Origin: a virus
Taxonomy: Duplodnaviria > Caudoviricetes
Length of the DNA stretch: 64,000 nucleotides
Direction: 5' to 3' (one strand)
Virus record (IMG/VR): IMGVR_UViG_2920693923_000001
Span: 64,001-128,000 of that record
Below, in pieces: positions 44,672-46,853 of this stretch. The translations under genes were made by a program, and so were the position numbers. The notes below the pieces were generated by a model. That model saw only the letters and a list, made by a program, of their open reading frames with translations, was not told the DNA's origin and did not search any database. The number at the start of each line of letters is the position of its first letter. Within the stretch, counting starts at the first letter, position 1.

Positions 44672-45147
44672 AATTAACAATTGATATTCCAAAAGGATAT
44701 GAAAGAGATTTTATAGCTGATAAGTTTAAAGATTTCTTTTCAAGAGTAATTACAGATATAGACTATAGCGATCTGTGTGGTAATTATGAAAAAGAAATTG
44801 CAGAAATGTTTTTAGAAGCATTTGACAAAGCTATTATTGGTGATACTAATCTAAATGCTAATGTTATTCCAGTTGAAAATATATCTTTTGACAAAGAAGA
44901 TATGAAGAAGATGATTCAAGACGAATTAAAGAAGTTCCAAGTAGAGAATAATCTAATATAGAAGTAATTCTATTCACGGCTGATCAGCCAAATTTCCCCA
45001 AAAAGTAACAAGAAATATTTTTTTCATTCGATTAGGCAAACGTGCCTATTTTCGGGTGATTTTACAACAAAATAATATTAAAAAGAAAGGATTTAACAGT
45101 AAATTCTAGGTAATTATGGTTACGTAACCTCTGTAGATTAAAGGATT

Positions 45148-46584
45148 TTGACAGAGAATAAAGAAAAAAATAATTATTATGAGAAGAACTGGAAGTTAGT
45201 AAACTTCTGTGAGTTCGATAAATATGCAACACGTTCTTATTGTGCTATTCACAATGAGAATGAAAGTAAAAATCTTGGCGATATTACTAAAGTTGATGAG
45301 ACAAAACTTGAACCATTTAATATGATTTGTGGAGGGTCACCCTGCCAAGATTTTTCGGTCGCTGGTAAGCAGAAAGGTTCTATGTGGACTTGTAAAGATT
45401 GTGGACATGAGTATAATCCACTGACAGTTCATTGGTCAGAAAGAGATAAATGTCCATGCTGCGGAAGTAATAATATTGAGAAGACTCGATCTTCTTTACT
45501 TGTAGAATATCTGAGAGTTATCAGAGCAAATAAACCAAATTTCGGTATGTATGAGAATGTAAAGAATATTGTAGGGAAACAGTTCAAAGATACATTCAAA
45601 ATGTTTACAGATGAGTTGGACGAGTATGGTTACAATGTGTACTGGAAAGTTCTCAACGCAAAAGACTATGGTATTCCACAGAATCGAGAGCGTGTGTATC
45701 TGATTTTTATTAAAAAAGAATTGGATAACGGTAAGTTTACATATCCTGAACCATTTGATAATGGAATGAGATTAAAAGATATTCTTGAAGAGAATGTTGA
45801 TGAAAAATTCTATATTTCAGAAGATAAAGTGCAGAAAATTCTCAATAGTAATTTTATGCAAGAAAAATTAAGAATTCAGGATGTGAATTCATCTTGCAGT
45901 TGTTTGCTTGCGAGAGATTACAAAGATCCAAAATGTGTACCAATGAATAATTCAGATACAAATCATCCTATGAGGATTGGTAATATTTATGGAGAACAAT
46001 TTGGTACTGGATATGCGGGCAACGTATGGGATGAAAACGGTGTATCACCAACTCTAATGACTTGTACAGATGGCGGTAGACAACCGCATATTACAGAAAT
46101 AATGAATAATAAAGTGGCAATTAAACAAGCTACGAAGAAAGGTTACATTGAATGTGAGGTAGGTGGTGTAGCAGATTTATCATATCCTGAATCTAAGACT
46201 AGAAGAGGAAGAGTTCAAGAAGATGGTAATATTTGTCCAACGATTACTGCAACAGAGACAGGTGTTTGCAGGATTGAATCACCTATTCGTGTCAGAAAGC
46301 TTACTCCGAAGGAATGTTTCAGACTTATGGGACTCTCAGATGAAAATTTTGATGCTGCTGAAAAGATGGTTAGTAATAGTCAGTTGTACAAGCAAGCAGG
46401 TAATTCCATCGTAGTAGATGTTTTGTATTACATATTAGTTGAGTTATATAAGGTTATGCCATATTTATTTGATGATTTAAAACTAAGTAGTTTCTTCTCA
46501 GGAATTGGTGCTTTTGAGATTGCATTGAATAGATTATATGAGAGCATTAATACTGGAAATTTTCGTCAGCCACAAGTGGATTAA
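45148..46584 (+). CDS. DNA (cytosine-5) methyltransferase, circularly permuted, multi-TRD
   Basis: GDITK, GGSPCQDFS, ENV, GIPQNRERVY, RKLTPKECFRL, YKQAGNSI; motif I FSGIGAF lies at the C-terminus. Confidence 0.92.
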   Translation: MTENKEKNNYYEKNWKLVNFCEFDKYATRSYCAIHNENESKNLGDITKVDETKLEPFNMICGGSPCQDFSVAGKQKGSMWTCKDCGHEYNPLTVHWSERDKCPCCGSNNIEKTRSSLLVEYLRVIRANKPNFGMYENVKNIVGKQFKDTFKMFTDELDEYGYNVYWKVLNAKDYGIPQNRERVYLIFIKKELDNGKFTYPEPFDNGMRLKDILEENVDEKFYISEDKVQKILNSNFMQEKLRIQDVNSSCSCLLARDYKDPKCVPMNNSDTNHPMRIGNIYGEQFGTGYAGNVWDENGVSPTLMTCTDGGRQPHITEIMNNKVAIKQATKKGYIECEVGGVADLSYPESKTRRGRVQEDGNICPTITATETGVCRIESPIRVRKLTPKECFRLMGLSDENFDAAEKMVSNSQLYKQAGNSIVVDVLYYILVELYKVMPYLFDDLKLSSFFSGIGAFEIALNRLYESINTGNFRQPQVD

Positions 46585-46853
46585 GTTCTGCTTGTGGTGA
46601 TTTAGATAAGAAAATTTATGTATATGATGACTATAATAGCAGGTTTATAAAAGATTAAGAACGAATGGGAACTATCACAACAAACATCGGAGCAAGTGCA
46701 TTACGAAATGGAATAAAACTTATTGAAATATCAAATGTTTGTATTGATGATACACAAGGTTTTGATGGAGTAAGATTTTATAATGGCTACACGCCAACTT
46801 TAAGAAGCCAACGAAGCGGATTAAAAGTTTTTGAAGATACAAGTAGAGAATAA
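46563..46853 (+). pseudogene. -1-frame extension of the MTase with two TRD-like modules, interrupted by TAA at 46656
   Basis: Same frame as track ORF 46665-46853; GTITT and TPTLRS motifs. Confidence 0.55.

Follow-up and report, generated by a model that had tools for sequence, protein, structure and literature searches.

A 64,000-nucleotide stretch of phage DNA (the window; positions 64001 to 128000 of the 159,903-bp IMG/VR record IMGVR_UViG_2920693923_000001) carries a gene whose product is very probably a natural circular permutant of a C5 cytosine DNA methyltransferase (MTase), with the chain broken between motifs I and II. The gene lies at positions 45148 to 46584 on the plus strand, begins with TTG, and codes for 478 amino acids. 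The source record is classed as a provirus by IMG/VR and is 99% complete according to CheckV, with a GC content of ~31% and nearly all genes on the same strand, and this gene is the only C5 MTase gene in that genome. A preliminary description made from the sequence alone had placed the open reading frame (ORF) at exactly these coordinates, with motif II at its start and motif I at its end, and this arrangement is borne out by the sequence itself, by the PF00145 profile, and by alignment with M.HhaI.

The ORF scores 206.6 bits against PF00145 (E = 8.2e-61; curated cut-off, 22 bits), and the hidden Markov model alignment, proposed beforehand as a check, matches it in two stretches, profile positions 22 to 82 and 80 to 322 of 324. 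Profile positions 1 to 21, which correspond to motif I, are unmatched at the N-terminus. A search against solved structures matches M.HhaI with E = 4e-35, and ORF residue 21 lies opposite M.HhaI residue 39 in the sequence alignment. The first ordered element is thus the motif II strand with E22 (WKLVNFCE, residues 15 to 22; 45190 to 45213), where the M.HhaI alignment from residue 39 begins. It is followed by motif IV (P65-C66-Q67, with catalytic cysteine C66; 45340 to 45348), motifs VI (ENV, 136 to 138) through VIII (QxRxR, 178 to 182; together 45553 to 45693), and motif IX (residues ~381 to 396) with the motif X helix containing G418-N419 (46288 to 46455), which aligns with M.HhaI 270 to 317. 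In an alignment of 39 permuted sequences with 42 to 95% identity (A1), the PCQ motif, E136, N137, V138, Q178, R180, R182, G418, and N419 are all invariant.

Motif I comes last, as a strand (444 to 449), an FSGIG loop, and a helix (455 to 469) at positions 46477 to 46554, recognized by profile, conservation, and structure prediction. Its residues (L444...F449-F450-S451-G452-I453-G454-A455-F456-E457) contain the SAM-binding FxGxG signature (SAM, S-adenosylmethionine). The order along the chain is motifs II to VIII, target recognition domains (TRDs), IX, X, an eight-residue linker (PYLFDDLK), and I; motif I is not ahead of motif II, as it is in the canonical I-to-X order. G452, G454, A455, and E457 are invariant in A1 and F450, S451, I453, and F456 nearly so, a level of conservation equal to that of the catalytic residues P65/C66, ENV, and QxRxR. 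The preliminary description held that an FxGxG upstream and in frame would speak against a permutation. To look for one, the N-terminal motif I segments of 56 canonical relatives were turned into a profile, which was run on the six frames of the genome; its single significant match is the C-terminal end of this ORF (E = 3.6e-7; the next match has E = 0.078), and it found no upstream or separate motif I in the six frames of the genome or of 87 related loci, many of which lie on contigs at least 150 kb long. In 79 of the 87 loci exactly one motif I is present within 3 kb on either side, no more than 40 amino acids from the ORF end; the other loci are either truncated or extended in frame.

An AlphaFold2 model, the second check suggested, has a mean predicted local distance difference test score (pLDDT) of 77.7 and a predicted template modeling score of 0.79. 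It adopts the M.HhaI-like two-domain fold (Z 30.8; root mean square deviation, 2.0 to 2.1 over 291 to 292 residues), with model residues 13 to 439 superposing on M.HhaI 31 to 324. The motif II strand is modeled at residues 15 to 21 (pLDDT, 84 to 96). At the other end of the chain, residues 441 to 470 have pLDDTs of 92 to 95, and DSSP assigns a strand to 444 to 449 and a helix to 455 to 469; because a DSSP strand requires bridge partners, the C-terminal motif I segment is modeled within the sheet. A second model, of the relative P0132, reaches pLDDTs of 96 to 98 at its own C-terminal motif I. From the models we infer that motif I fits into the SAM pocket.

The permuted architecture is widespread and is not a one-off. 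It is found in 118 of the 120 closest protein clusters (70 to 95% identity; ENA, JGI, and Logan assemblies), and the closest permuted clusters share both a common start and a common end with the window ORF. The gene is present in 80 IMG/VR loci, mostly contigs of 148 to 165 kb. Among GTDB genomes, the isolates Blautia faecis DFI.3.66 and Bacterium D16-76 both have the architecture, and the permuted gene is also in metagenome-assembled genomes of Bacilli, Clostridiaceae, and Lachnospiraceae. With clusters drawn at 50% identity, clean permutation is seen in at least 32 separate ones, and 62 clusters, with 42 to 53% identity to the query, are canonical. An assembly or gene-calling artefact is excluded by this spread over clusters and isolates and by the loci that lack an upstream motif I.

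The C5 MTases are textbook examples of a fixed motif order, and the only systematic survey that we found limits natural departures from it to the variable region. That survey screened 20,677 REBASE entries for a motif X ahead of motif I and yielded 27 natural permutants (including M.BssHII, M.Alw26I, M2.Eco31I, M.Esp3I, and M2.BsaI), all broken in the variable region, and its authors concluded that nature favors breaks that keep both domains intact (PLoS One 2018; PMC5944983). The phage enzyme resembles these in being a natural permutation of the same fold with motif X ahead of motif I. However, in the M.BssHII type, motifs IX and X precede I to VIII and both domains remain intact, whereas the phage enzyme is broken between I and II inside the large domain and its N-terminus does not lie in the variable region; the proposal that this is a different permutation is therefore supported. 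A closer counterpart comes from the permutants of M.MpeI and M.SssI built in the same study, of which cp35M.MpeI and cp33M.SssI, cut just past the motif I helix, methylate DNA in vivo (PMC5944983). These too have a new N-terminus just after the motif I helix, with motif I joined to the old C-terminus past motif X. By structural alignment, model residue 9 lies opposite residue 32 of M.MpeI (4dkj), and the natural break therefore coincides with the engineered break of cp35M.MpeI. Those constructs are laboratory-made, single-specificity CG enzymes, whereas the phage enzyme is natural and widespread, with several TRDs and a Cys4 insert.

The plant enzymes DRM/DRM2 (PDB 4onj and 7l4c) also have motif X followed directly by motif I, and residues 382 to 469 align in the same order with their chains (E ~1e-4). 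DRM, however, is a eukaryotic RNA-directed de novo enzyme broken between motifs V and VI (VI to X, then I to V), and the phage enzyme shares only the X-to-I adjacency, its motifs II to VIII being contiguous from the N-terminus. We found no report of a natural enzyme broken between motifs I and II in the literature searched, which did not extend to subscription-only papers; the family itself is known, and it is the natural break point that has not been recorded before for C5 MTases. The break in the window family lies inside the SAM-binding half of the large domain and is common and long-lived in gut phages, and the family offers natural material for testing how far the cofactor pocket tolerates altered chain connectivity.

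Some clues to the origin of the permutation come from canonical relatives. The linker and motif I of the permuted forms resemble the C-terminal tail of one canonical relative joined to the N-terminus of another, and the tail of canonical P0206 resembles the permuted linker. In Bacillus phage Deep Blue (L088:1352-3634; Blue_147/Blue_146), a stop codon alone separates two canonical C5 MTase genes that share a frame, and the Deep Blue group of Bacillus phages carries such tandem same-frame canonical genes. A duplication-fusion model of permutation requires a starting state of this kind, and the Deep Blue genes are a plausible precursor state; a search of cultured phages for the X-to-I junction itself gave only tandem genes with an intervening stop. 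On a maximum-likelihood tree of the core (motifs II to VIII plus IX to X) built from 29 permuted and 60 canonical rows, permuted and canonical forms are intermixed, with nine changes, at least four of them forced by well-supported branches. A single permuted clade is rejected (approximately unbiased test, delta lnL 213, p = 2e-5). Either the permutation arose repeatedly or cores and ends have recombined.

The variable region (45823 to 46281) contains three stacked TRD units (residues ~226 to 266, 267 to 317, and 318 to 378), as proposed, delimited by the ends of local matches to other MTases, which cluster at ~260 to 266, 315 to 320, and 355 to 385. The block is mosaic in close relatives, with two to five units in varying combinations; close relatives of 478 to 555 amino acids differ in the units they carry, and the last unit is constant. 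The arrangement is familiar from the Bacillus phage enzymes M.SPRI, M.Phi3TI, and M.SPBetaI studied by the Trautner laboratory, which carry several tandem TRDs between motifs VIII and IX and differ among relatives in a mosaic of TRD content. The phage enzyme is similarly phage-borne, with more than one tandem unit between VIII and IX, but the Bacillus phage enzymes have the canonical order I to X; to our knowledge, neither a Cys4 insert nor recoding has been reported for them. Comparison with cultured-phage enzymes gave no close characterized TRD from which targets could be read (43% identity at most). The permuted relatives P0132 and P0178, with which P0154 was also grouped, have no TRD between motifs VIII and IX and instead a TRD-like module after motif I; in P0132 and P0178, with a TRD only after motif I, this implies that a TRD can be functional away from its usual place. 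The AlphaFold2 model of P0132 leaves the post-motif I TRD unplaced (pLDDT <50).

A second feature of the family begins immediately after motif I. The heptamer A_AAT_TTT (46557 to 46563) lies in frame over codons N471 and F472, and 6 nucleotides past it a 10-bp hairpin pairs 46570-46579 with 46588-46597, holding the 0-frame TAA in its loop. Even at synonymous positions, the heptamer does not vary among 34 distinct related sequences, and it is in frame in every locus that carries it. Across the 34 sequences, 98.2% of hairpin cells are paired and compensatory changes are seen at 5 of the 10 pairs; none of 500 shuffles reached this covariation score, and controls slid along the alignment were 35 to 53% paired. 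In L024, L029, and L032 a hairpin of unrelated sequence occupies the same spot. An in-frame heptamer, a spacer of 5 to 9 nucleotides, and a stable downstream structure make up the layout of a programmed -1 frameshift site, and the 6-nucleotide spacer and covarying hairpin conform to it. Conservation of the C-terminal peptide G-N-F-x-x-P-Q-x-[D/E] is thus better accounted for by the RNA than by the protein.

What follows the heptamer differs sharply among the three frames: the 0 frame stops at 7 to 8 codons and the +1 frame within 2 to 24, and the -1 frame is open for 53 to 118 codons in most loci. The -1 peptides are of at least seven types, homologous to the VIII-to-IX TRD segments of other MTases at 40 to 85% identity (E down to 1e-25). 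In the window, the -1 frame extension (46557 to 46658; 33 codons) ends at TAA 46656-46658, where L008, L016, and L022 have CAA. The remainder of the -1 frame cassette (46659 to 46853), with two TRD-like units recognized by homology (E to 1e-12), is cut off by this TAA; in L008, L016, L022, L040, L042, L059, and others it is open and continuous with the extension. With a stop at TAA 46656, the long form in the window would add only 33 residues. Some relatives naturally carry the extension in frame, namely L025, L058, and P0139, and also P0132 and P0178, where the only TRD follows motif I. The device can also be serial: in L061:5136-5570 and L094:2961-3360 another heptamer and hairpin, with a stop 8 codons on, close the first -1 module, and a second -1 TRD module of 75 or 66 codons follows (L061 and L094, respectively). 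L012 to L015, L018, L019, and L071 lack the downstream TRD cassette through a clean deletion, their ORF ending G-N-F-T-K just past the heptamer; a clean deletion at this junction suggests recombination there.

For the family as a whole, programmed -1 frameshifting probably appends optional TRDs, as judged from the conservation of these sequences. In relatives, slippage at A_AAT_TTT with the hairpin would let a fraction of ribosomes add recognition modules, and in the window genome the extension would be truncated by the nonsense codon. The same heptamer, spacer, hairpin, and -1 TRD modules end the canonical-order MTases L093 to L095 of other phages, and in L092 these modules are fused in frame. 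Because the device also follows motif X of canonical-order enzymes, it is independent of the permutation. The suggestion that permutation serves to free a new C-terminus therefore survives in part: it fits a recoding site and TRD modules placed after motif I, but permutation is not needed for them. The logic recalls the lambda G/GT tail chaperone and dnaX, in which an X_XXY_YYZ heptamer and a downstream stem-loop yield a short and a C-terminally extended product. The phage system shares the heptamer, the stem-loop, and the predicted pair of products, but here the extension is a DNA-recognition module of an MTase and the device is repeatable in series. We found no report of frameshift-appended TRDs in the same body of literature. 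Automated annotation describes these proteins as plain cytosine methyltransferases, and the permutation and recoding features are both missed.

How the permuted protein would work can be outlined as follows. Translation would start just ahead of the motif II strand, and the chain would form motifs II to VIII, the three tandem target-recognition units, motif IX, and the motif X helix; PYLFDDLK would then lead to the motif I strand, its FxGxG loop, and its helix. The motif I segment is predicted to fold back to the center of the Rossmann sheet, where it and the N-terminal E22 would jointly complete the SAM pocket. We infer SAM binding in cis, catalytic activity, and multispecificity, and with high probability the product is an active, multispecific phage C5 cytosine DNA MTase with one continuous permuted catalytic domain. 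It most likely protects phage DNA against several host restriction systems.

Several observations weigh against this reading. The start codon is TTG, with a Shine-Dalgarno-like AGGA only 2 to 3 nucleotides upstream, and L018, L023, L033, and L080 have no start codon before V18; the TTG is aligned with an ATG start in the orthologues L024, L026, and L029. Model confidence is low in the TRD parts (pLDDT <50 at 240 to 268 and 320 to 378), and the engineered cp35M.MpeI, active as it is, is poorly soluble (PMC5944983). One could suppose instead that the ORF is the relic of two tandem MTase genes, of which the first lost its motif I and the intergenic stop was then lost, leaving an inactive protein that cannot bind SAM. 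Stop-separated canonical genes in one frame in Bacillus phages such as Deep Blue show that the starting state exists, and TRD-like pieces do follow motif I in the window. The latter, however, belong to a device also present after canonical MTases and so are not debris of a second gene, and a relic is hard to reconcile with motif I glycines invariant in 39 sequences down to 42% identity, with an architecture that hundreds of phage genomes and no fewer than 32 clusters at 50% identity have kept, or with a confidently modeled protein that is the sole C5 MTase of a 99%-complete phage; we consider it highly improbable. Scarcely more probable is an active enzyme assembled in trans, in which two chains form a domain-swapped dimer and the motif I of one completes the other's pocket. 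A short linker (~8 residues) connects the motif X helix with the motif I strand, and split C5 MTases can form from separate chains, but engineered permutants with directly fused termini are active with or without a linker (PMC5944983), both chain termini lie near each other in canonical structures, and the motif I strand is placed confidently in the monomer model.

The device after motif I has its own alternative, namely that the hairpin and -1 modules are untranslated and represent silent TRD cassettes with recombination junctions for swapping specificity, the 478-residue form being the product in all phages. Modules are indeed swapped or deleted exactly at the junction, and the window carries a stop inside its module. 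Against this stand a -1 frame open for 53 to 118 codons in most loci against 2 to 24 for +1, a heptamer invariant at synonymous sites with a hairpin always 6 nucleotides away, serial devices with a stop each time 8 codons past the heptamer, and the natural in-frame fusions (L025, L058, L092, P0139, P0132, and P0178). Silent cassettes thus seem to us rather unlikely, and frameshifting the better account.

Taken further, frameshifting would make these genes a modular specificity system, a proposal for which we see the case as evenly balanced: a core, permuted or not, would end in a recoding cassette of heptamer, hairpin, and TRD module, repeatable in series, and one gene would yield nested enzymes with zero, one, or two extra specificities. 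Were this true, a TRD would function while attached to the end of the chain, away from its textbook location between motifs VIII and IX, and the permuted form, in which motif I closes the core, would be one stable arrangement within the system. Real recoding cassettes would constitute a new phage route to wider anti-restriction methylation and would revise the view of how TRDs connect to the core, which is relevant to engineering MTases of chosen specificity.

The catalytic loop contains a further insertion, a Cys4 zinc-ribbon-like element (C82-x2-C85...C102-x2-C105; 45391 to 45462) after PCQ. The preliminary description had noticed this insert, and it is real: residues 43 to 114 give weak Zn_ribbon_8/HypA Pfam matches, and in the alignment it falls within the mobile catalytic loop, between residues 92 and 94 of M.HhaI, with pLDDTs of 80 to 95 in the model. 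It is present in 22 of the 32 permuted cluster representatives and in 24 of the 62 canonical ones; its presence in canonical relatives means that it is not tied to the permutation, which it either predates or is independent of.

Other insertions occur elsewhere in the family. Inteins interrupt motif IV in P0006, P0121, P0129, P0137, and P0139, with the catalytic Cys of Pro-Cys as the residue directly after the intein; P0006 gives Hint_2 and Intein_splicing Pfam matches. In P0182 an HNH plus AP2-like endonuclease domain lies in frame between the post-motif I helix and the conserved C-terminal tail. At the 5' end of the coding region, the leader contains an A7 run (45164 to 45170). L016 has A6 instead, so that its TTG start is no longer in frame. 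In L018 the A-run contains the end of a short upstream ORF that is read in a different frame. These variants could represent a second switch, decay, or homopolymer sequencing error. A perfect palindrome of 10 to 12 nucleotides, GGTTACGTAACC, lies at 45118 to 45129, ~15 nucleotides upstream of the MTase start, and a palindrome of variable sequence is found at the equivalent place in L001 to L087, examples being GATTGCGCAATC, GTTGTACAAC, and GTGTACACAC.

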